Assembly (NCBI GenBank): GCA_040386935.1
Contig: JAZKEQ010000013.1
Location: 2,399 to 66,398, forward strand
Length of the DNA stretch: 64,000 bases
Source of the DNA: Bacteroidota bacterium
GTDB lineage: Bacteria > Bacteroidota > Bacteroidia > NS11-12g > UBA955
Reading direction: 5' to 3'
The notes below the pieces were generated by a model. It was given only the letters and a program-made list of their open reading frames with translations. It did not search any database and had not been told where the DNA came from. The number at the start of each line of letters is the position of its first letter. Position 1 is the first letter of the stretch. The translations under genes and the position numbers were made by a program. Shown here one piece after another: positions 21,501 to 31,333 of this stretch.

Positions 21501-22094
21501 ATGAAACATGCAATATTTACCCTGCTATTGTTACTTTGCCTTAATAGTGTGCAAGGTACTACTTGGACAATCACCAATGTGGCCAATACTTTTTCACCGG
21601 CTACACTTACCATTCAATTCGGTGACTCCGTTATATTTTCTATCTCATCTTCTCACGATGCTTTAGAAATCAGTAATGAAACATGGAATACCAATGGCAC
21701 CACCCCGATTTCGGGCGGATTTGAAGTGCCCTTTGGTGGCGGCATTTTAGCACCCTCCGATTTAGGTGTCGGCACTCATTATTACATTTGTACTGCCCAT
21801 GCAGCAATGGAAATGAAAGGAATTATTATTGTGGAATCTGCAACGGGTATAGAACCGATGGTACCACTCCCCTATTTTATTTTATATCCAAATCCATGTA
21901 CCAATTTTATCACCATCGATTATGGATCTGAAAACTGTCATTATCTCATCATTAATTTTATGGGTCAACCGGTTAAATCTGCATTATTGACAAAAGGCGT
22001 CAATCTCATAGAATTATCTAACCTACCATCCGGTTTTTATTTTGTAAGCGTAATCGAACGCCCATCATACAGATATACACTTGTTAAACACTAA
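21501..22094 (+). CDS. cupredoxin (plastocyanin/azurin-like blue copper protein) with T9SS type-A C-terminal sorting domain
   Basis: 197 aa with a signal peptide. Type-1 Cu ligand pattern SSHD ... YYICTAHAAMEM (C-x2-H-x4-M). C-terminal LYPNPCTNFITIDY...LPSGFYFVSV is a T9SS CTD signature. Confidence 0.7.
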   Translation: MKHAIFTLLLLLCLNSVQGTTWTITNVANTFSPATLTIQFGDSVIFSISSSHDALEISNETWNTNGTTPISGGFEVPFGGGILAPSDLGVGTHYYICTAHAAMEMKGIIIVESATGIEPMVPLPYFILYPNPCTNFITIDYGSENCHYLIINFMGQPVKSALLTKGVNLIELSNLPSGFYFVSVIERPSYRYTLVKH

Positions 22095-22124: not shown

Positions 22125-22280
22125 ATGAACAGATTGCTTTATACCCTGGCCATTATTCTCCTTGTACTATGGGCCATTGGCTACTTTACTACCAATATTG
22201 GCAGTATTATCCATATACTATTAGTAATTGCAATAATCGCCATTCTTCTCCGTGTAATTAAGGGAAGAGATCCTCTCTAA
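22125..22280 (+). CDS. lmo0937-family small membrane protein (51 aa; below the ORF-track size cut-off)
   Basis: ATG at 22125, TAA at 22278-22280. Product MNRLLYTLAIILLVLWAIGYFTTNIGSIIHILLVIAIIAILLRVIKGRDPL is nearly co-linear with the product of 24218..24370. Confidence 0.7.
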   Translation: MNRLLYTLAIILLVLWAIGYFTTNIGSIIHILLVIAIIAILLRVIKGRDPL

Positions 22281-22319
22281 ATACTTACAAATTAATGTTT
22301 AACCTAAATAACAAACATC

Positions 22320-22607
22320 ATGAAAAAATCAATTTTAATCATCCTTGTACTCCTGGCATTTGCAATCGTTCCAATGAAAAGCTATGCAAGTAAAGCACAA
22401 CATGAAAGTGCTAATGAATCTTTAAATGTTTCTCACATTGAAGATAAAAAAGGAGAAAACGCTAAAACAGAAGTCATAATACATGAAGATGAAACAGCGC
22501 CTGATAAAAGCGAAATTAAAGAGCAATCAAATGCTGTAGGTGGTGGCGTATATATTTCGGCCGGCAGTCTTATTCTCATCATTGTTTTATTAATTATTTT
22601 TCTATAA
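22320..22607 (+). CDS. hypothetical secreted protein with C-terminal GGGVYISAG plus hydrophobic tail (paralog of 25540..25833)
   Basis: 95 aa with signal MKKSILIILVLLAFAIVPMKSYA, a charged low-complexity middle, and an end of [22 protein letters not shown]. Confidence 0.6.
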   Translation: MKKSILIILVLLAFAIVPMKSYASKAQHESANESLNVSHIEDKKGENAKTEVIIHEDETAPDKSEIKEQSNAVGGGVYISAGSLILIIVLLIIFL

Positions 22608-22650
22608 TTTTCAAGTAGAAACGTTATCCGTACATCTTTACTGAATTTAA

Positions 22651-22689
22651 AGAAAGCTATAGCAACAAAACTATAGCTTTCTTCATTTT
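22651..22689 (+). terminator. rho-independent terminator
   Basis: Perfect 12-bp stem agaaagctatag / ctatagctttct with an 8-nt loop, followed by tcatttt. Lies 44 nt after the stop at 22607. Confidence 0.65.
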
Positions 22690-22935
22690 GGAGACTCTAA
22701 AATTATAAGTTGAAAGATTGTCGACCGAAAAAAAATAATTGGTAAATTGTGCAATCGGATTCCGTAAAATACTATTTTTAATATTAAATAATTTATCGCC
22801 CTTTTTTTCATATTTTAAATTTGTTTAGTAAAACCTTATATTTGATAATTCACCTTTGCTCAAAAAATAAAAATATGAATTTTATATTTCAAGGTTTAAT
22901 TTTTAGCACAAGCATCAATTAACTGCAATCACAGA

Positions 22936-23541
22936 GTGCTTAAACACTTACCCATATTGTTAATTTATTCAAGATTGTTAATTGGCTGCCTGTTGTTATA
23001 CCTCAGTTTTACCGATATAGCGCATTACCCGACCATTGCCATCCTACTTTTTACCCTTGGTTTACTTACCGATATTTTTGATGGCATCATAGCCCGGAGA
23101 CTCGGCATATCGACTCAGCGTTTGCGTAGACTCGATTCGAGCATTGATCAGATTTTTTTTATATGTGTGGCGATTGCAACGTATATCCAATGTCCTGTTT
23201 TCTTTCAATCACATCTCACGGAAATAATCCTGCTTATTTCTTTTGAGGCTCTTACCTATTTGATTTGTTTCATTAAATTTAAAAAGGAAGTGGCCACCCA
23301 TGCCATATCATCCAAGATATGGACCTTGATTTTATTTGCCTCAATGATTCAGATTATGGGAACCTGTGATTCAGGTTGGCTTTTTCAAATTGCTATTTAT
23401 TTAGGATTGCTTACACGACTCGAGATTATGGCAATTATAATCACCATCAGAACCTGGACAAATGATGTACCGAGCATTTATCATGCTGTACAATTAAGAA
23501 AAGGGCTACCCATCAAGCGACACAAACTATTTAACGGGTAA
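22936..23541 (+). CDS. CDP-alcohol phosphatidyltransferase family protein
   Basis: 201 aa with a GTG start and multiple TM helices. Motif DIFDGIIARRLGISTQRLRRLDSSIDQ approximates D-x2-DG-x2-AR...D-x3-D. Confidence 0.65.
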   Translation: MLKHLPILLIYSRLLIGCLLLYLSFTDIAHYPTIAILLFTLGLLTDIFDGIIARRLGISTQRLRRLDSSIDQIFFICVAIATYIQCPVFFQSHLTEIILLISFEALTYLICFIKFKKEVATHAISSKIWTLILFASMIQIMGTCDSGWLFQIAIYLGLLTRLEIMAIIITIRTWTNDVPSIYHAVQLRKGLPIKRHKLFNG

Positions 23542-23579
23542 CACAGACAAGTTACATTTTTTCATTACATCAACTTTCA

Positions 23580-23747
23580 TCAAGCTTTGCACTTTTTCCT
23601 GAATTCATTGGGGCTGATACCCTCTGCCTGTTTAAATAATTTACTGAAATAAGATTCGTCTTCAAAGTCGAGCTTGTAGGCTATTTCCTTTACACTCTGG
23701 TCGGATGGATACAGCAATTTATTGGCTGCATGATTTCTACTTTTACA
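23580..23747 (-). pseudogene. remnant of an AraC-family regulator gene (only the last HTH retained)
   Basis: Minus-strand translation CKSRNHAANKLLYPSDQSVKEIAYKLDFEDESYFSKLFKQAEGISPNEFRKKCKA* (stop at 23580-23582) matches the AraC C-terminal HTH signature. It is preceded immediately by an in-frame TAA and has no start codon. Confidence 0.55.
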
Positions 23748-23845
23748 TTACAAAAGTAGGATAAGAAACCGGCCAGTGTATATGATAAAATTCATTTTTT
23801 ATCACAAAATTGTTCTTATAAAATGGGGTAAAGCTACTTCCAACT

Positions 23846-23909
23846 GTGAATTATGTAAGCATTCTAGTGAAATGTGTAAGACTTAAAGGTGTTGCATTAT
23901 TCATCTTTG
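23846..23909 (+). promoter_or_regulatory. copy A of the conserved 64-bp tripartite promoter/operator element
   Basis: GTGAATTATGTAAG-N7-GTGAAATGTGTAAG-N23-TCTTTG. The same layout and spacing occur at 25425 and 30374. It ends 25 nt before the ATG at 23934. Confidence 0.6.
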
Positions 23910-23933
23910 CATAGTTAATAAACAATCAAAATC

Positions 23934-24149
23934 ATGGAAAATAATCAACAAAGCAGCAGCGAGCCATTCAGCATTACAGGCGACTGGGACATCCAATCAA
24001 TTGCATTAAAAGAAAAGTATCCGCAACTGACGGATGCCGACTTGTTATTTGAAGCGGGTAAAGAAGACGAATTAATTGGCAGAATCGAATCACGTTTAAA
24101 TATAAATCGCAGCGAAATCATTAATATTTTAACTACGCCTGCGCTGTAA
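23934..24149 (+). CDS. CsbD-like general stress protein
   Basis: 71 aa. The pattern GDWD......LKEKYPQLTDADLLFEAGKEDELIGRI fits the CsbD/YjbJ-like small stress proteins. Confidence 0.5.
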   Translation: MENNQQSSSEPFSITGDWDIQSIALKEKYPQLTDADLLFEAGKEDELIGRIESRLNINRSEIINILTTPAL

Positions 24150-24217
24150 AACCATCCACCATGGCAAAATCAACTCAATATCCATTTCCATATTATATAG
24201 AATACAAAAAAAAACAC

Positions 24218-24370
24218 ATGAATAATCTACTTTATACCATTGCTATCATCCTTTTAATTATTTGGGCGATTGGCTACTTTTCATACAACACCGGCAATAT
24301 CATTCACATTTTATTAGTCATTGCTGTTATCGCTATACTTTTACGTGTAATCAGAGGCAGAGACATTTAG
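24218..24370 (+). CDS. lmo0937-family small membrane protein (50 aa)
   Basis: ORF 24161..24370. The internal ATG at 24218 gives MNNLLYTIAIILLIIWAIGYFSYNTGNIIHILLVIAVIAILLRVIRGRDI, co-linear with the 22125..22280 product. Confidence 0.65.
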   Translation: MNNLLYTIAIILLIIWAIGYFSYNTGNIIHILLVIAVIAILLRVIRGRDI

Positions 24371-24374
24371 TATT

Positions 24375-24641
24375 ATGAGTAAAAATAACAATACAGCTAA
24401 AGTCATTGGTGCTTTGGCTGTAGGCTTACTTGCCGGATCGGCCTTAGGAATGCTGTTTGCGCCTGATAAAGGTGCAATGACACGCAGAAATATTTCTGAT
24501 GGCTTAAAAGGTATGGCTCAGCGTATCAAAGACCCATTCAATAGCGCAAAAATACAATTGGCTATCGAGCAAAAGTTGCAGAAACAATGGGAAAAGAACC
24601 ATGACATTGTTTCTGGCAATCAAACAGAGCATAATTACTAA
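24375..24641 (+). CDS. YtxH domain-containing protein
   Basis: 88 aa. The N-terminus KVIGALAVGLLAGSALGMLFAPDKGAMTRR is the YtxH signature (TM helix plus LFAP..G...R). Confidence 0.7.
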   Translation: MSKNNNTAKVIGALAVGLLAGSALGMLFAPDKGAMTRRNISDGLKGMAQRIKDPFNSAKIQLAIEQKLQKQWEKNHDIVSGNQTEHNY

Positions 24642-24683
24642 CGTACAATTTATCCAGTTAAAATACTTAATGCACAACTACAA

Positions 24684-25028
24684 ATGAATGAACCAGGATC
24701 AACAGAAGAAATTACCGAGAGTTTAAAAACTTATATTAACAACTATTATGAGTTAATCAAACTACAAGCGACTGAAAGGGCATCTGTCATTGGCAGTGCA
24801 TTAATTAGCGGATTTTTGATTGTAATGACCGTATTTCTCATCATTTTATTCTGCAGTCTTGGTGCAGGTTTTTACCTGTCTCAATGTTTTAACAATAATT
24901 ATATTGGATTTGTTATCGTTGCCGGGTTTTACCTGATATTGTCATTAATCATCATTTTGAATAAGAAAAAAATGATCGACACCCCCATGAGAGACAGAAT
25001 CATCAGAAAAATGCTGCAAGAGGATTAA
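24684..25028 (+). CDS. two-TM membrane protein, Holin-X/DUF1469-like ('phage holin family' annotation type)
   Basis: 114 aa with an amphipathic N-terminus (YYELIKLQATERAS) followed by two long TM helices. This type commonly travels with YtxH genes. It is not evidence of a prophage. Confidence 0.45.
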   Translation: MNEPGSTEEITESLKTYINNYYELIKLQATERASVIGSALISGFLIVMTVFLIILFCSLGAGFYLSQCFNNNYIGFVIVAGFYLILSLIIILNKKKMIDTPMRDRIIRKMLQED

Positions 25029-25050
25029 ATCTATTTAATGAGCCTATTCT

Positions 25051-25428
25051 ATGGATAATACAGAAATCAAAGACTATACAGATTTAATGATAAGCATTAA
25101 ACTGCTGAAAGAAAAAAAATTCAGACAGGAAACTGAACTCAAGTCTATTTTTAAAAACTTCGCCAATGCCCATGATCCTATTTCAATTTTAAAAGGATCC
25201 ATTAAGTCAATTTCGTCAAATAGAGAAATTCAAGGTGATTTGTTAAAAGTCACCATCAACACAGGTGTTCATTACTTGATGGGTAAAATTTTAAATAGAA
25301 ATCTGCCAATTAAAGACTTTCTGAGTTCCGTAATGGTGGAAAAAATATCGACAACACTTACGAATATCAATATCACAGGGCTTATTGCCAAAGGCATAGC
25401 CTTTATTAATCCAAAAAAGAATCAGTGA
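25051..25428 (+). CDS. hypothetical protein
   Basis: 125-aa ORF in an operon-like array (22-nt gap from the previous gene). No motif recognised. Confidence 0.45.
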   Translation: MDNTEIKDYTDLMISIKLLKEKKFRQETELKSIFKNFANAHDPISILKGSIKSISSNREIQGDLLKVTINTGVHYLMGKILNRNLPIKDFLSSVMVEKISTTLTNINITGLIAKGIAFINPKKNQ

Positions 25429-25488
25429 ATTATGTAATGAATTCATTGAAATGTATAATCATTCCAATAGCCATTACACCCACCTTTG
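25425..25488 (+). promoter_or_regulatory. copy B of the conserved 64-bp tripartite promoter/operator element
   Basis: GTGAATTATGTAAT-N7-TTGAAATGTATAAT-N23-CCTTTG. The GTGAA overlaps the TGA stop of the upstream gene (25426-25428). Confidence 0.6.
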
Positions 25489-25539
25489 TATCCGAATCAT
25501 TTGAATATCCAAATGAACAACAACCAAATCAAATATAAA

Positions 25540-25833
25540 ATGAAAAAATCAATCATCACAGCCTTTATTGTTATTGTAAGCATGTTTGCAATTCCGGTAC
25601 AATCATTTGCAGGTAATGCAGTAAATTCAAAAAGTTCAAGCACAATGAACAGCGAAGAATTTTCCGGTTCAGAGCAATCAACTTCTGACAAATCTGTAAG
25701 AACTAGCCCAACAACTCAGTCAGAAAAATCAAAGAAAGAAAACACAACAGCCAACCAGAGCATAGGCGGTGGTGTTTATATTTCAGCCGGTGCTATCATA
25801 TTGATTATCGTACTGATTATCATCCTTCTTTAA
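25540..25833 (+). CDS. hypothetical secreted protein with C-terminal GGGVYISAG plus hydrophobic tail (paralog of 22320..22607)
   Basis: ORF 25486..25833 starts at a TTG inside the regulatory element. The ATG at 25540 gives [24 protein letters not shown]..., an S/T/E-rich middle, and an end of [22 protein letters not shown]. Confidence 0.6.
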
Positions 25834-25837
25834 AACT

Positions 25838-26128
25838 ATGGAAAACTCAAATAACACAATGAAACTAATCGGAGCCCTCATTTTAGGGGGGGTGACCGGT
25901 GCTGCTCTGGGTATTTTGTTTGCACCTGACAAAGGCAGCAATACAAGAAGTAAATTAATGACCGGTGCTAAAGACATGATTGGTGATATAAGCAATAAAT
26001 TAAAGGAAGAAGCCAGAATATTAAGAGGTAAGGCTGAAGAACTGGAAGCACTTGCGGAAGAAAAAATTGCGGTCTTAAAACAAAAAGCAGATTCATTATT
26101 AAATAAAGAACCTGAACAAAGCACTTAA
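25838..26128 (+). CDS. YtxH domain-containing protein
   Basis: 96 aa with [32 protein letters not shown] followed by a coiled-coil-like tail. Second YtxH gene in the island. Confidence 0.7.
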
Positions 26129-26160
26129 ACTTCTTAACGCTTTTTAATCTGTATACATAA

Positions 26161-26186
26161 AATGCGAACAATCTTTTGTTCGCATT
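26161..26186 (+). terminator. perfect hairpin (terminator/attenuator-like) between the YtxH gene and the AI-2E transporter gene
   Basis: aatgcgaacaa-tctt-ttgttcgcatt is an 11-bp perfect stem with a 4-nt loop. The trailing U-tract is weak (atcattt). It lies inside the ORF-track N-terminal extension of 26162..27304. Confidence 0.4.
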
Positions 26187-26209
26187 ATCATTTAAAAAGC
26201 ATCCCATTC

Positions 26210-27304
26210 ATGGAACCAGTTAAAATTCCTTTTTACGCCAAAGCATCGCTGATATTTATCGGCATGTTTGCATTTATCAGCATGCTGTATATTGCTCAGA
26301 AAATCATTCTCCCTATTATTTTTTCTGTCATCATTGCTATTGTCATGAGCCCATTGGTTGATTTTCTTGTCAGAAAAAAATTCAATCGCGTATTCGCTAT
26401 TTTCACGGCACTGATTATAGTGGGATGTGTTACATTTAGTTGTATTTTCACCATATCTACACAATTAAGTATTTTCGGACAATCATTCCCTCAATTCATT
26501 GATAAACTCTATCTGTCACTTGACAACACTGTTCTATGGATAGCTGACAATTCATCTATTAGCGCTCAAAAGTGCAATGAGTTCATTGCGTATTCAAAAA
26601 ATGAGATACTCAATCTTGGTAAATCATCAATAGGTGCCACCATTTCATCCATAGGAGACATGATCATTATTCTGGTATTAATCCCTGTTTATGTGTTCAT
26701 GTTTTTATTTTACAGACCCTTACTTCTCGACTTTATTCGCAGCGTATTTGGGGAAGTCCATCAGGTAGAAGTGAATGCCGTTTTGAATTCTACCAAAAGA
26801 ATTGTGCAACAATATTTGATTGCTTTGCTGTTTGAAGCCATTATAGTTGCCATCCTGAATACGAGTGGCCTATTGATTATAGGCATTGATCATGCAATCA
26901 TTCTCGGCATCATTGGGGCATTATTAAATATTATTCCGTACATCGGTGGCATAATAGCCGTATCTTTACCCATGATAGTAGCGTATACCACCAAATCCTC
27001 CCCCAGTTTTGCGCTACTGGTTTTACTGCTCTATGGGGTCATTCAGTTTATTGACAACAATTACATTATCCCAAAACTAGTCGCTTCAAAAGTCAAAATA
27101 AATGCATTGGTATCTATTGTTGTCGTAATTGCAGGTAGTGCCTTATGGGGCATACCCGGCATGTTTCTTTCCATACCATTGACAGCCATTATCAAAGTGA
27201 TATTTGACCATATCGAACAACTTAAGCCATGGGGATTATTGCTCGGAGACACATTGCCAAAAATTACCATTTTTAAAATTAAGTTAAATTACAAAAAATC
27301 ATGA
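26210..27304 (+). CDS. AI-2E family transporter (PerM/UPF0118 permease)
   Basis: I prefer the ATG at 26210 (MEPVKIPFYAKASLIFIGMF...), downstream of the hairpin. Polytopic, with LLNIIPYIGGIIA, typical of the family. Confidence 0.75.
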   Translation: MEPVKIPFYAKASLIFIGMFAFISMLYIAQKIILPIIFSVIIAIVMSPLVDFLVRKKFNRVFAIFTALIIVGCVTFSCIFTISTQLSIFGQSFPQFIDKLYLSLDNTVLWIADNSSISAQKCNEFIAYSKNEILNLGKSSIGATISSIGDMIIILVLIPVYVFMFLFYRPLLLDFIRSVFGEVHQVEVNAVLNSTKRIVQQYLIALLFEAIIVAILNTSGLLIIGIDHAIILGIIGALLNIIPYIGGIIAVSLPMIVAYTTKSSPSFALLVLLLYGVIQFIDNNYIIPKLVASKVKINALVSIVVVIAGSALWGIPGMFLSIPLTAIIKVIFDHIEQLKPWGLLLGDTLPKITIFKIKLNYKKS

Positions 27305-29304
27305 AAACTCTTGAAAGAGAAGCTTCCCAATACGCCAGGAGTTTGATTGAAGCCAGTCTTGACCCCTTAATCACCATCAATAATGAAGGAAAGATTACGG
27401 ATATGAATGAAGCTCTCGCCAATATCACCGGAATATCTCGAGAAAACTTAACCGGTACAGATTTTTTCGATTATTTCACCGACCCTCAGAAAGCGCGTGA
27501 AGTATACCAAGAGGTATTCGCTAAAGGTTCAGTTGCCGACTTACCACTTACACTGCGCCATAAAGATGGCAAACTAACAGATGTTAAATTCAATGGCTCG
27601 GTTTATAAAGATGATAAAGGCATTGTGTTGGGAATTGTAATTGTGGCAAGAGATGTAACTGAACAAAAACGCATTGCAACAGAATTAACCGAAGCGAAGA
27701 TATTTGCTGAAAAAGCTACAAAAATTGCGGAAGATGCACAAAGCAAAGCTGAAATGGCCACTGAAATTGCTGTAAATGCTGTTAAAGCAAAACAACAGTT
27801 TTTGTCGAACATGAGTCATGAAATCAGAACACCGATGAATGCCATCATAGGCTTTACCAAAGTGGTACTCAGAACAGAATTAACAGACAAACAAAATGAA
27901 TACCTTACCGCAATTAAAATAAGCGGAGATGCACTGATTGTATTAATCAACGATATATTGGATTTAGCAAAAGTAGATGCAGGAAAGATGACCTTTGAAA
28001 AAACTCCTTTCAAATTGGCCTCTTCTATTTCAGCCATGTTGCATTTATTTGAAACCAAAATCATGGAAAAAAACCTGATTTTAATCAAAGAGTATGACAA
28101 AAATATTCCTGAGGTGCTGATAGGCGACCCTGTGCGATTACACCAAATCATTAATAATCTTGTTAGCAATGCAGTAAAATTTACCATTAAAGGATCCATT
28201 ACTGTAAGTGTCACCATGATTGAAGAATCTGAGGACCAGGTAACCATAGAATTTGCCATAAGCGATACCGGCATTGGTATTGTAGACAGTAAAATTGACA
28301 ATATTTTTGAAAACTTCCAGCAGGCTACCAGCGGCACTTCGCGATTATATGGCGGTACCGGATTGGGATTGGCCATTGTCAAACAATTGGTAGAACATCA
28401 AGGTGGCAGTATCAGAGTTAAAAGTTATATCGATAAAGGGTCAACCTTTAGCTTTACTTTAAATTTCCAGAAAACAGTTGAAGCAACGGAAATTGAGTCA
28501 GGATTGGTAGAGCTCGATAAAGAAGTTATCGACTTGAACATATTGGTAGTAGAAGATATTGCACTGAATCAATTATTGATGAAAACACTTTTAGAGGACT
28601 TCGGTTTCAAATGTGATATCGCTGAAAACGGTAAAATAGCCATAGAAAAACTCCTGCTAAAAACTTATGACATGATTCTAATGGACCTGCAAATGCCTGA
28701 AATGAATGGATTTGAAGCCACAGAATACATCAGAAAAAAACTCAATCTCAATATTCCTATCATAGCTTTAACTGCAGATGTCACAACTGTTGACCTTGCG
28801 AAATGCAATGCTGTGGGTATGAATGATTATATCGCTAAGCCTGTTGATGAGCGATTACTGCACCATAAAATTACCGGTATTATTAAGAAAAATATTTTGA
28901 ATAACAGACGCCATGAGCATCCCCCAGTAATAATAAACTCAATTAAATGCACCAATCTCGACAGACTTAGACAGATTACAAAATCAAAAACTGAACTGAT
29001 GATGCAAATGATTGATTTGTATTTGACTCAAACCAGGTATTTGGTTCCTAAGATGAAAGAAAGTTCCAATAACAAGGACTGGCATGCGCTTGAAGCAACC
29101 ATACACAAAATGATTCCTTCATTTTCAATTATGGGTTTTGATACTGAATACGAGACCATTGCTAAAAAAATACAAGAGAATGCGGTCTTACAAACACATA
29201 TTGACAAGATACCTGCAATGGTTACACAAATAGAACAAATTTGTTTACAGGCCTGTATAGAACTTGAAATGGAATATGTCACTTTAAAAAACAACAACCA
29301 ATGA
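27301..29304 (+). CDS. PAS-domain hybrid sensor histidine kinase/response regulator with C-terminal HPt-like domain
   Basis: 667 aa with an N-terminal PAS, a coiled coil, the H-box FLSNMSHEIRTPMNAIIGF, ATPase boxes (DTGIGI, GGTGLGLAIV), a receiver (DMILMDLQMPEMNG ... ALTA) and a terminal HPt-like ATIHKMIPSFSIMGF. The start overlaps the transporter stop (ATGA). Confidence 0.9.
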   Translation: MKTLEREASQYARSLIEASLDPLITINNEGKITDMNEALANITGISRENLTGTDFFDYFTDPQKAREVYQEVFAKGSVADLPLTLRHKDGKLTDVKFNGSVYKDDKGIVLGIVIVARDVTEQKRIATELTEAKIFAEKATKIAEDAQSKAEMATEIAVNAVKAKQQFLSNMSHEIRTPMNAIIGFTKVVLRTELTDKQNEYLTAIKISGDALIVLINDILDLAKVDAGKMTFEKTPFKLASSISAMLHLFETKIMEKNLILIKEYDKNIPEVLIGDPVRLHQIINNLVSNAVKFTIKGSITVSVTMIEESEDQVTIEFAISDTGIGIVDSKIDNIFENFQQATSGTSRLYGGTGLGLAIVKQLVEHQGGSIRVKSYIDKGSTFSFTLNFQKTVEATEIESGLVELDKEVIDLNILVVEDIALNQLLMKTLLEDFGFKCDIAENGKIAIEKLLLKTYDMILMDLQMPEMNGFEATEYIRKKLNLNIPIIALTADVTTVDLAKCNAVGMNDYIAKPVDERLLHHKITGIIKKNILNNRRHEHPPVIINSIKCTNLDRLRQITKSKTELMMQMIDLYLTQTRYLVPKMKESSNNKDWHALEATIHKMIPSFSIMGFDTEYETIAKKIQENAVLQTHIDKIPAMVTQIEQICLQACIELEMEYVTLKNNNQ

Positions 29305-29732
29305 CTTTAAAAAAAGATATGATATTTCTGGTAGATGATGATGCGCTATTTCTTAAATCACTCGAAATAGAATTTCTATTGGATGAAGGTTATAATGTTA
29401 AAACCTTTGCAACAGGAGAACTTTGCATTGATCATTTGTTTATCAATCCTGAAATAATTATCCTGGATTATCATTTGGATGATATTGACAAAACAGCCAT
29501 GAATGGTATTCAGACTTTGGATGAAATCAAAAAAATCAATTCTGACATTTCAGTTGTAATGCTTTCGGCTCAAGACAAGATCAATGTAGCAATAGATTGT
29601 ATGCATCATGGGGCAACAGACTATGTTGTAAAAAGTGAAACCACTTTTATACGATTAAAAACCATCATCAAGGTCATTAATGACCGAAAAAAACTGGAAA
29701 AAGAAGTCAATTGGTATATGGAAAGATTGTAA
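29301..29732 (+). CDS. single-domain response regulator (receiver only)
   Basis: 143 aa with LVDDDALF, IILDYHLDD, VVMLSAQ and DYVVKS. No output domain. The start overlaps the kinase stop (ATGA). Confidence 0.85.
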   Translation: MTLKKDMIFLVDDDALFLKSLEIEFLLDEGYNVKTFATGELCIDHLFINPEIIILDYHLDDIDKTAMNGIQTLDEIKKINSDISVVMLSAQDKINVAIDCMHHGATDYVVKSETTFIRLKTIIKVINDRKKLEKEVNWYMERL

Positions 29733-29837
29733 TCCCCCTCATAGTACCATATAATAAAAAAACCAATCGCGGCTAATTCACCTACATTTACACCAATCTA
29801 GTTCATTTAACAGTATATGATACTCTACATTAAGTAT

Positions 29838-30377
29838 ATGGTGAGTCTTCGTTGTAAAATGATGGTAAAAGATGAGCTAAAAAAAATGGGCTTGCATTTT
29901 ATTATTGTTGATTTGGGAGTAGTCGAAATTCTTGAAGACTTATCAATCATAGAACATGATTTACTCAAAGTTAACCTGCTCAAATCCGGGCTGGAATTGC
30001 TGGATGACAAGAAAAGCATATTGATAGAAAAAATCAAAAATGTGATAATTGAGATTATCCATTACTCAGATGAAATTCCAAAAATGAATTATTCGGATTA
30101 TATCAGTGAAAAACTGAATTATGATTATACTTATTTATCAAATGTGTTTTCTGAAGTAAAAGGCATTACCATACAGCAATTTATCATCATCAATAAAATT
30201 GAAAGAGTAAAAGAGTTATTGCTATATGATGAAATGAATATGACTGAAATTGCTGATAAAATGCACTACAGCAGTGTGGCCCACCTCTCTAATCAATTTA
30301 AAAAAACCACAGGTCTCTCTCCTACTTTTTATAAACAAATGAAAGTAAAGCGACTGACCAATCTCGAAAACATGTGA
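29838..30377 (+). CDS. small AraC-family transcriptional regulator
   Basis: ORF 29817..30377. I prefer the ATG at 29838 (MVSLRCKMMVKDELKKMGL...). The C-terminal double HTH includes ...YLSNVFSEVKGITIQQF... and MTEIADKMHYSSVAHLSNQFKKTTGLSPTFY. Confidence 0.8.
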   Translation: MVSLRCKMMVKDELKKMGLHFIIVDLGVVEILEDLSIIEHDLLKVNLLKSGLELLDDKKSILIEKIKNVIIEIIHYSDEIPKMNYSDYISEKLNYDYTYLSNVFSEVKGITIQQFIIINKIERVKELLLYDEMNMTEIADKMHYSSVAHLSNQFKKTTGLSPTFYKQMKVKRLTNLENM

Positions 30378-30437
30378 AATATGTAATACTCATACTTATT
30401 CATGTAATATTCAACCACTCGAATTGATTCATCTTTG
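30374..30437 (+). promoter_or_regulatory. copy C of the conserved 64-bp tripartite promoter/operator element
   Basis: GTGAAATATGTAAT-N7-CTTATTCATGTAAT-N23-TCTTTG. The GTGAA overlaps the TGA stop of the AraC gene (30375-30377). Confidence 0.55.
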
Positions 30438-30523
30438 CCCCTGTAAGTTTGATTGTTTCGCAATACCAAATACGAATTTGGTTAATAGCATTTTCTCAAA
30501 AGAACTTACTCAATCAATATACA

Positions 30524-31279
30524 ATGAGAAATCCTCTATCACAAAAAATCGCAGCTTCAGCCTTCACCTTTATGGTTGTCTGTTCTGCTTCTGCCTTTAC
30601 TACACCTGCCGTTAAGCATCAGCCACGTTTTAAAACAAATATGACTGAGTCTGATTCAAACAATCAGCCTAATTCTAAACTGAAACACTTTGAATTCGGA
30701 TTGCGCTACATGCCTACTTTTACAAATCTTGAGTTACAAAACAGAGATGGCAATGTCATTGAAAGTTCAGGTAGTTTTAGCAATGGTTTCGGTGCCATGT
30801 TGGGATTCAACATTACCAATCACATAGGCATACAAGCTGAAGCCAGTTTTTATTCTGCTTCACAGAAGTACACTGAAGGCGGATATGACCAGAATGTAAA
30901 AATAAAGTATATTAACATTCCCTTGTTTTTCTCACTAAACACGAATAAAACTTCCCGCTTCAATTTAAATCTTGTTGCTGGACCTCAATTTGGTGTTAAT
31001 GCAGGGTCTAAAATTTCATCAGGAGGGTCAGGCAGTAAAGACACACTTATGGCAGTCGTTGCATTAAAACGTGCAGACTTCGGTTTTGCGTTTGGTGGTG
31101 GTGCAGAAATTATACTGAATACTGACGAAACATTGCGTTTGGATATCGGTTTAAGAGCCTATCGTGGATTTTTAAACATCAATAACGAAACTCAAACTGA
31201 AAACGGCACATACAATGTAATGGTTAAATCAACCCGTAAAACAAACTCAGCTTACATCGGAATTTCATTCCTTTTTTAA
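30524..31279 (+). CDS. outer-membrane beta-barrel protein (porin-family, OMP_b-brl_2-like)
   Basis: ORF 30449..31279. The ATG at 30524 gives MRNPLSQKIAASAFTFMVVCSASAF (signal peptide). Beta-strand alternation, ending in AYIGISFLF. Confidence 0.6.
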   Translation: MRNPLSQKIAASAFTFMVVCSASAFTTPAVKHQPRFKTNMTESDSNNQPNSKLKHFEFGLRYMPTFTNLELQNRDGNVIESSGSFSNGFGAMLGFNITNHIGIQAEASFYSASQKYTEGGYDQNVKIKYINIPLFFSLNTNKTSRFNLNLVAGPQFGVNAGSKISSGGSGSKDTLMAVVALKRADFGFAFGGGAEIILNTDETLRLDIGLRAYRGFLNINNETQTENGTYNVMVKSTRKTNSAYIGISFLF

Positions 31280-31301: not shown

Positions 31302-31333
31302 AAAAGTGCCACGAGAAATTGTGGTGCTTTTTT
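31302..31333. terminator. bidirectional rho-independent terminator between convergent genes
   Basis: aaaagtgccac-gagaaatt-gtggtgctttttt forms a stem with two G-U pairs. An A-run precedes it and a T-run follows it. Confidence 0.55.

Follow-up and report, generated by a model that had tools for sequence, protein, structure and literature searches.

The window analysed here is a 64,000-nucleotide stretch of DNA from a Bacteroidota bacterium, which carries, between positions 22125 and 31279, an island of small membrane and stress-type protein genes interleaved with genes for an AI-2E-family permease, a hybrid histidine kinase, a receiver-only response regulator and a small AraC-type regulator. 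The sequence comparisons indicate that this island forms the core, in this genome, of a regulon that recurs throughout Bacteroidota, and that conservation of the system centres on the AraC protein and not on the two-component pair. The gene set listed in an initial annotation of this DNA was recovered at the same positions from the open reading frame (ORF) list and from Pfam. The same annotation had treated the full 9 kb as one compact unit with a shared promoter element, a description that holds for 23846-31279 and fails for 22125-23717, where no element lies. Specifically, because the first DUF5670/GGGVY pair has no element, and because 22608-23933 holds a CDP-alcohol phosphatidyltransferase gene and an AraC remnant that are both unrelated to the theme of the island, the co-regulated part is taken to be 23846-31279. 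Its features are listed below, with element scores from R1, a sequence-only covariance model of the 11 element sites of this genome, whose E-values are rough.

23846..23909 (+): element E1, GTGAATTATGTAA, N8, GTGAAATGTGTAA, N21, TCATCTTTG; R1 score 42.5 bits
23934..24149 (+): CsbD-like protein, 71 amino acids (aa), first gene of operon 1; Pfam CsbD E=0.004 (below cutoff), NCBIfam PRK10428 E=1e-5
24215..24370 (+): DUF5670 protein, 51 aa, copy b; Pfam PF18919 E=5.8e-14
24375..24641 (+): YtxH protein a, N-terminal transmembrane helix and helical region; Pfam PF12732 E=5.6e-10
24684..25028 (+): PF07332 ("Holin-X", YqjE-type) protein with two transmembrane helices, 114 aa; Pfam E=9.2e-7
25051..25428 (+): 125-aa protein, third of the YtxH/PF07332/125-aa trio; ORF, TGA stop inside E2
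25425..25488 (+): element E2; R1 score 43.4 bits
25537..25833 (+): GGGVYISAG-tail protein, copy b; ORF and translation
25838..26128 (+): YtxH protein b; Pfam E=3.1e-12
26161..26186: perfect 11-bp hairpin with a weak T-tract, between the small-protein and signalling genes; terminator-like scan
26210..27304 (+): AI-2E permease, start at 26162 or more likely 26210; Pfam PF01594 E=1.8e-50, full profile
27301..29304 (+): cytoplasmic PAS hybrid kinase with PAS, HisKA, HATPase, REC and HPt; Pfam, HPt by ortholog profile
29301..29732 (+): receiver-only response regulator whose C-terminal helix (…WYM…) is conserved; Pfam REC E=1.6e-16
29817..30377 (+): small AraC, 186 aa, type A, N-terminal HMA-like domain (MVSLRC) and two helix-turn-helix (HTH) motifs; HTH_18 E=2.6e-15
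30374..30437 (+): element E3; R1 score 37.3 bits
30524..31279 (+): outer membrane protein (OMP) beta-barrel, start at 30449 or probably at ATG 30524; Pfam OMP_b-brl_2 E=6.8e-12
31302..31331 (+): terminator-like hairpin at the end of the island; terminator-like scan

Promoter element, AraC regulator and targets in the genome

A repeat search and reading of the sequence confirmed the proposed shared promoter element as three 64-bp copies with identical spacing. Each copy begins with GTGAAnnATGTAA and N8, continues with another half-site, ..TGTrTAA, placed 21 bp further 3', and ends after N21 in a -7 box, yCAyCTTTG. The half-sites thereby form two direct repeats, GTGAAnnATGTAA(C) followed by ..TTnTGTAAC at about -42 to -36. 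Housekeeping promoters of Bacteroidota are of the -7/-33 type with the -7 box nAnnTTTG; the element promoters keep this box and lack the -33 box, which the half-sites replace. The first GTGA of the element can also include the stop codon of the gene before it, namely the TGA of the 125-aa gene in E2 (25425-25428) and that of the AraC gene in E3 (30374-30377).

The same design recurs well beyond the island. Scanning the whole assembly (3.4 Mb, 81 contigs) with a position weight matrix gave 11 copies with full geometry, three in the island and eight elsewhere, all of them 35-150 nt 5' of a same-strand ORF. Forty sites from 20 genomes align without gaps to the consensus GTGAATnATGTAAC..TTnTGTAACAC..CACCTTTG, in which both half-sites and the -7 box are invariant (positions G1 T2 G3 A4, T9, A12 A13, T32 A33, A58 and T61-G64). 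In all 40, the half-site starts lie 21 bp apart and the proximal TGTAAC ends 22 nt ahead of the -7 box. Judged by its sequence, this arrangement of tandem direct half-sites about two helical turns apart, the proximal one overlapping the -35 region, has the geometry of AraC/XylS class II promoters.

The AraC protein of the island carries the C-terminal two-HTH domain that defines the AraC/XylS family (HTH_AraC E=7.5e-13, in addition to HTH_18). An AlphaFold (AF2) model built from 29 orthologs (predicted local distance difference test score, pLDDT, 86.7) places an N-terminal domain at residues 2-62, followed by a long helix and a MarA-like two-HTH domain, and in a fold search of the PDB the DNA-binding domain superposes on AraT, YesN, MarA and SoxS with template modelling (TM) scores of 0.7-0.8. 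The N-terminal domain is predicted to follow a beta-alpha-beta-beta-alpha-beta order (strands at 2-6, 28-32, 35-38 and 60-62, helices at 11-23 and 44-56, pLDDT ~87-91) and resembles the copper chaperone CopZ (2qif; TM 0.70, probability 0.98). It lacks the MxCxxC metal loop: MVSxRC, with serine for the first cysteine, is invariant in 29 of 29 sequences, and so are Cys13 and His82 in AraC proteins of the island type.

The closest parallels are the class II activators of the AraC/XylS family, such as AraC at araI1-I2, XylS at Pm and RhaS, together with MarA/SoxS, with which the island shares the two-HTH domain, direct half-sites 21 bp apart and, as far as sequence geometry goes, a proximal half-site in place of the -35/-33 box. 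The island protein differs in its N-terminal domain, where 65 residues with an HMA-like ferredoxin fold replace the cupin or sugar-binding domain; its promoters belong to the -7/-33 type of Bacteroidota; the targets are stress and envelope genes, not a catabolic operon; and the stop codon of the regulator is itself part of the presumed operator.

Outside the island, the Pfam-annotated targets comprise an OmpA plus Gly-zipper lipoprotein unit, a DUF748/AsmA-like gene followed by BrkB/YihY, a canonical CsbD, two small two-transmembrane-helix proteins ahead of MlaE, an Ice_binding-like lipoprotein and a lipoprotein without a family. Since eight copies lie elsewhere in the genome, the island appears to be the densest part of a dispersed regulon. 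The proposal of a dedicated module is thereby modified: the gene content fits an envelope or desiccation-type stress function, but the module is not self-contained, with at least 11 promoters genome-wide and a system that extends across the phylum.

A further strong copy (C57:18732-18795, minus strand) precedes a copper operon that, according to Pfam, encodes a Cys-rich DUF326 protein, a membrane protein, an HMA-AraC paralog with an intact CxxC, CopA and CopZ. This paralog and a second one on contig C38 both retain CxxC, and their second HTH is almost the same as that of the island AraC. Neither the element nor stress genes adjoin the paralog on C38. The AraC paralogs may share, or cross-talk on, the operator.

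An alternative reading takes the regulon to answer specifically to metals or thiols (copper, redox) instead of serving a general envelope or dormancy response. The copper-chaperone fold of the AraC N-terminal domain would fit such a role, as would the invariant Cys13 and His82, the CxxC of the paralogs, one of them in the copper operon (DUF326, CopA, CopZ) behind a strong element, and a Dps gene in the corresponding operon of a congeneric genome (G007). Set against this, the island-type AraC has an invariant SxxC and not CxxC, 10 of the 11 target units (CsbD, YtxH, DUF5670, OmpA, DUF748, Ice_binding, OMP) have no metal link, and in other genomes, too, the targets belong to the envelope or stress type, which together make a metal- or thiol-specific response very improbable.

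Conservation beyond this genome

The initial annotation had suggested asking whether the gene set co-occurs in a conserved order in other Bacteroidota. The set does recur outside this genome, so that the absence of co-occurrence which the annotation had named as refuting its proposal is not observed, but its order varies, as seen from ORF lists and Pfam on a sample of loci (the identity of some contigs was inferred from matching coordinates). Of 18 congeneric genomes, four have an AraC ortholog (63-69% identity). The genes for AraC, the hybrid kinase and the receiver adjoin in two genomes of the same genus, G003 and G007, and likewise in the distant Bacteroidota L051, L084 and Flavobacterium fluvii (L119). 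G007 carries, in order, a CsbD-like gene, Dps, AraC, a kinase (667 aa), a receiver with an ATGA overlap and then an OMP gene, with the element before the CsbD-like gene, whose product is a homolog of the CsbD-like protein of the island (23934-24149; E=7e-12). In the same genome, one element precedes the ortholog of the DUF748 target described above. In G003, AraC, kinase and receiver form one overlapping operon convergent with an OMP/DUF5670 pair, and an element about 12 kb away drives a lipoprotein gene followed by those for YtxH, PF07332 and, in the equivalent position, a protein homologous to the 125-aa one (E=1e-5). OMP barrels lie 3' of AraC in G007, G003 and Pontibacter, and in L084 the genes behind the element are DUF5670, AI-2E and Ice_binding.

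Two conserved AraC orthogroups can be distinguished. Type A, which includes the island protein and its Pontibacter counterpart, ends in …NLENM with its stop codon within the element. Type B ends in …RRxPxEExGN and lies directly 5' of the kinase and receiver genes; its members, among them those of G003, G007 and Flavobacterium fluvii and the second AraC of L051, share 79-84% identity. L051 (10001-11240) carries both types in tandem. Culturable carriers encountered in the comparison are F. fluvii DSM 19978 (L119; type B AraC, kinase, receiver and element), Pontibacter humidus BT310 (L050; type A AraC, element at its stop codon), Chryseobacterium shigense DSM 17126 and Algoriphagus aquimarinus. 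The genome studied here has type A only, situated 3' of the receiver gene, an arrangement seen nowhere else among the loci examined.

The distribution of the element is linked to that of the regulator. At E<=2e-4, R1 finds the element in the genome from which it was built, in all four relatives that have an AraC ortholog, and also in G011, where the AraC is a 51% identical paralog; none of the nine other genus-level genomes reaches E<1e-3. A species-representative collection contains at least 590 relatives of the AraC protein, the best 80 of which are 65-80% identical and come from Cytophagales, Chitinophagales, Flavobacteriales, Sphingobacteriales, Bacteroidales, Saprospiraceae and Balneolales. 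Within 1.36 Mb around these 80 loci R1 gives 165 matches at E<=1, 146 of them on the AraC strand, and in about 30 of the 80 foreign loci the element starts exactly at the AraC stop codon (TGA inside GTGA), as it does in the window. At position 13005 of L111 the element starts at the stop of the receiver gene.

Signalling genes and proposed mechanism

The kinase has the domain architecture of a hybrid kinase, with HisKA (E=7e-20; H-box SHEIRTP), HATPase (E=5e-28) and REC (E=3e-26) recognised by Pfam. The HPt domain that the initial annotation had placed in it was missed by Pfam and by a single-sequence search of the PDB with the island kinase, yet a profile of six orthologous C-termini matches the HPt structures 3myf (E=7.7e-4) and plant AHP2 (E=0.008), with the invariant histidine of HK(M/I)IPSFSIMG aligned with the HPt phospho-histidine. 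Additionally, an alignment of the whole kinase to ArcB extends over the HPt region and reaches position 761 of the 779 in the profile, and the ortholog of F. fluvii has a Pfam Hpt match at E=0.0017. We place moderate confidence in the presence of an HPt domain on the basis of these alignments. The sensor parts differ between genomes, with one PAS domain here, three in L051, and CHASE3 plus two PAS domains in F. fluvii. The receiver is a single-domain response regulator: D12, D13, D56, S89 and K111 are invariant in six orthologs, and REC is followed by no output domain, only by a 25-residue C-terminal helix.

The permease, kinase and receiver genes were described as a translationally coupled unit, and the 4-nt ATGA overlaps at 27301 (AI-2E/kinase) and 29301 (kinase/receiver) are both present. 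The permease more likely starts at 26210, because the ATG at 26162 lies inside the hairpin 26161-26186. Membership of the AI-2E family does not imply export of AI-2. A survey of 50 genomes with a close AraC found a receiver ortholog (>=58% identity) in 11 and two more receivers with ~40-64% identity at E<=1e-25. The receiver gene is found 0.1-5 kb 3' of AraC in at least 9 of the resulting 13 carrier genomes, where AraC is followed by the kinase, the receiver and then the element. Eleven of the 50 genomes have an AI-2E ortholog, and seven of these also a receiver ortholog (p=0.003); the AI-2E gene lies 0.4-29 kb from AraC in six genomes, adjacent to it in L108 and at 4.6 kb in L084. As the three genes are present in a subset of genomes, co-occur and lie near AraC, they are read as a co-inherited accessory of the AraC system. 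The unit thus stands as regards the ATGA couplings and the co-occurrence at genome level, while AI-2E and the kinase are translationally coupled only locally.

The available data are compatible with a model that we regard as probable, though with modest confidence, in which the island belongs to a stress/envelope regulon activated by AraC in class II fashion, with the PAS hybrid kinase-HPt-receiver phosphorelay as an optional input or feedback. The small AraC would bind the two half-sites as two tandem subunits and recruit RNA polymerase, thereby substituting for the absent -33 contact. It would turn on operon 1 (the CsbD-like, DUF5670, YtxH, PF07332 and 125-aa proteins), operon 2 (the GGGVY protein and YtxH), the OMP gene and at least eight promoters elsewhere in the genome. 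The hairpin at 26161-26186 is a possible partial terminator or processing site, and read-through past it would extend operon 2 to AI-2E, the kinase, the receiver and perhaps AraC, which would let operon 2 feed back positively on the kinase and the receiver and perhaps on its own activator. Phosphate would pass along the His-Asp-His(HPt) path of the kinase to the receiver-only protein. The kinase/receiver pair, co-inherited with AI-2E, would in turn serve as an accessory input or feedback arm, most likely through protein contact, with the phosphorylated receiver modulating AraC. The products, in their great majority small proteins of the envelope or with a membrane anchor, would probably protect membrane, envelope and ribosomes under non-growth, water or cold stress. 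From sequence we infer the DNA binding and activation by AraC, the stress signal and the coupling of receiver to AraC.

Several observations weigh against this model, beginning with the place of the phosphorelay in it. The kinase/receiver pair is absent from 37 of the 50 close-AraC genomes and therefore cannot be a general input, and because the pair is a transcriptional target of E2 in the window, it could be output only. AraC might thus activate the regulon while AI-2E, kinase and receiver are only its outputs, a stress-induced signalling module with some other object, for instance another regulator, an enzyme or the permease. This alternative would account for the single co-directional, overlapping block that the three genes form downstream of E2, for their patchy distribution and for a receiver without an output domain, and the AraC protein could sense a signal directly through Cys13 and His82 in its ligand-type domain. 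However, where the pair is present it nearly always shares one operon with AraC (type B AraC, kinase, receiver), an arrangement typical of a regulator with its signalling partners, and a simultaneous role as input and output, that is, feedback, is compatible with all of these observations. We judge the output-only alternative unlikely, if worth keeping in view.

The assignment of the element to AraC is also not free of difficulties. Of 150 evenly sampled Bacteroidota genomes, 76 carry a member of the AraC family and 20 a close one; the element (E<=1e-4) occurs in 13, and 10 of these are among the 20 close-AraC genomes (Fisher p=3.7e-8, which, as with the other Fisher statistics, is approximate because the tests ignore phylogenetic non-independence). 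Half of the close-AraC genomes have no element match at E<=1e-4 under stricter filters. Additionally, three genomes of one family (f17: G094, G099 and G104) carry good elements together with only a 32-43% identical full-length AraC homolog. Their elements (in G094 at L130, C70:8000-23000) precede Usp, OmpA/MotB-like and OMP-barrel genes, and either a divergent regulator reads the same operator in this family or another factor does. Finally, the sequence comparisons argue that the AraC-to-element assignment is not exclusive, as the second HTH of the paralogs is almost the same and the element precedes the copper operon of one of them.

These points bear on the alternative that a different factor, either another transcription factor or an alternative sigma, reads the element and that AraC is merely a member of the regulon. 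The binding of AraC is itself inferred from sequence, in the f17 genomes the element persists beside an AraC homolog that is merely distant, and the TGTAAC of the element resembles the AAC core of -35 boxes of the extracytoplasmic function (ECF) type. An ECF-sigma promoter reading was nevertheless rejected on spacing and on the type of the downstream box: the 21-22 nt between TGTAAC and the box, together with nAnnTTTG, fit a housekeeping -7 box and not an ECF -10 box at 16-17 nt. AraC is likewise favoured by the presence of two direct repeats in phase, by the roughly 30 loci, from different classes, in which its stop codon forms part of the element, and by the strong phyletic association, and no sigma or anti-sigma gene was found in the islands examined that would point to a dedicated alternative sigma. 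A sigma-70 scan gave 51 sites where 51.4 are expected and thus no enrichment, with a method that does not model Bacteroidota promoters. On balance, control of the element by a factor other than AraC is highly improbable.

Stress-type gene content, known systems and flanking genes

The AraC-centred regulon can be read, by analogy, as a programme of stress, dormancy and envelope protection, since homologs of its targets elsewhere depend on sigma-B or RpoS and since part of operon 1 resembles yqjD-yqjE-yqjK. csbD and ytxH (B. subtilis ytxGHJ operon) are general stress genes of the sigma-B type, and lmo0937-type DUF5670 genes are reportedly sigma-B dependent in Listeria. The hydrophilic low-complexity proteins, together with Dps and the Ice_binding-like ones, suggest that the stress concerned involves water, cold or oxidation. 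The likeness to the sigma-B system of Bacillus/Listeria, to RpoS of E. coli and to EcfG of Alphaproteobacteria lies in CsbD, YtxH, DUF5670, Dps (in G007), the OmpA/Gly-zipper lipoprotein and small membrane proteins, and in one promoter signature placed over many loci. In the EcfG/PhyR system a phosphorelay with a receiver-only protein acts upstream, which adds a further parallel. Unlike these systems, the island has no dedicated sigma and uses a housekeeping -7 box with an activator site, and stress induction is here deduced from gene content. By this analogy the system may work like a sigma-type general stress response without being a member of that class.

In E. coli, YqjD, ElaB and YgaM tether ribosomes at the membrane and inactivate them, yqjD-yqjE-yqjK is RpoS-dependent, YqjD-type ribosome silencing occurs in stationary phase, and yqjE/yqjK synteny is conserved beside DUF883 genes (bioRxiv 10.1101/2024.08.16.608256). 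The island shares the layout of a membrane-anchored helical protein, a two-transmembrane-helix PF07332 protein and a small family-less protein, and E. coli YqjE is a PF07332 protein (E=3.5e-21), as is the 114-aa protein of the island. However, the first gene of the island trio encodes YtxH with an N-terminal anchor, not DUF883 with a C-tail anchor, and the third protein (125 aa; 25051-25428) gave no YqjK match in a profile search and no family match in Pfam or NCBIfam. A ribosome link for YtxH is thus only an analogy. A final comparison concerns the hybrid two-component systems (HTCS) of Bacteroides and the YesM/YesN-type pairs, which likewise unite kinase, receiver and an AraC-type DNA-binding domain in one signalling unit; the REC-AraC regulators AraT and YesN are the best fold matches of the island DNA-binding domain. 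In contrast to HTCS, which fuse sensor, HisKA, HATPase, REC and AraC parts into one polypeptide, the island parts are three separate ORFs and its AraC has no receiver; its kinase has, by the profile match, an HPt domain and is cytoplasmic, and polysaccharide-utilisation loci are not what it targets.

Although Bacteroidota are a dominant group of soils, oceans and guts, to our knowledge no master regulator of general stress is known for this phylum, which is without RpoS, sigma-B and EcfG. A full-text search of the literature found neither such a master regulator nor any description of the present system or its parts in Bacteroidota. The locus offers a candidate regulator and a candidate sensing arm (kinase, receiver and permease), which makes the question of a stress regulator testable. 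A bolder proposal, which we put forward only tentatively and regard as possible but doubtful, is that the circuit is the master switch of the general stress (dormancy, desiccation, cold) response of Bacteroidota, based on a transcription factor and not on a sigma, with nearly invariant type A and B activators, one rigid promoter module and, in some lineages, contact between the phosphorylated receiver and the HMA-like domain. If true, control of an activator via its HMA-like domain by a phosphorelay with an AI-2E-family membrane partner would constitute a partner switch of a new kind. The exact operator and promoter design would predict regulon members in any genome of the phylum. The locus would also, for the first time, place several widespread families without assigned function (DUF5670/lmo0937, YtxH, PF07332/YqjE, CsbD and Ice_binding-like lipoproteins) in a regulatory and physiological setting. 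With its rigid 64-bp layout, the module might find use in Bacteroidota genetics as a stress-inducible promoter part.

Upstream of the co-regulated part lie three further features.

22125..22280 (+): DUF5670 (lmo0937-like) protein with two transmembrane helices, 51 aa, copy a; Pfam PF18919 E=2.3e-13
22320..22607 (+): GGGVYISAG protein, copy a, 95 aa, secreted or anchored, hydrophobic C-terminal tail; ORF and translation
23580..23717 (-): AraC-type remnant, 45 aa, second HTH only, of a type unrelated to the island AraC; HTH_18 positions 40-80 of 80, E=2.8e-11

The two DUF5670 copies share 71% DNA identity. Before the first DUF5670/GGGVY pair, a match with three mismatches at 22009 was discarded as an element: it has neither a second half-site nor a correctly spaced -7 box, and R1 gives none there. 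Neither GGGVYISAG protein belongs to a Pfam or NCBIfam family, and the exact back-translated motif occurs twice in this genome and in 1 of 150 other sampled Bacteroidota genomes (as GGGVYITAG in G166). A wide GGGVYISAG family was rejected on this count, and the rarity of the exact motif suggests a narrow or fast-evolving one. The AraC remnant (23580-23717), probably a decayed gene, occupies the 390-bp spacer directly 5' of E1. Finally, a 197-aa protein encoded at 21501-22094 has a C-terminal sorting domain of the type IX secretion system (Por_Secre_tail E=4e-9) and a weak match of the plastocyanin/azurin copper-binding type (E=0.014); its gene ends 30 nt 5' of the first DUF5670 gene, with which it may be co-transcribed.

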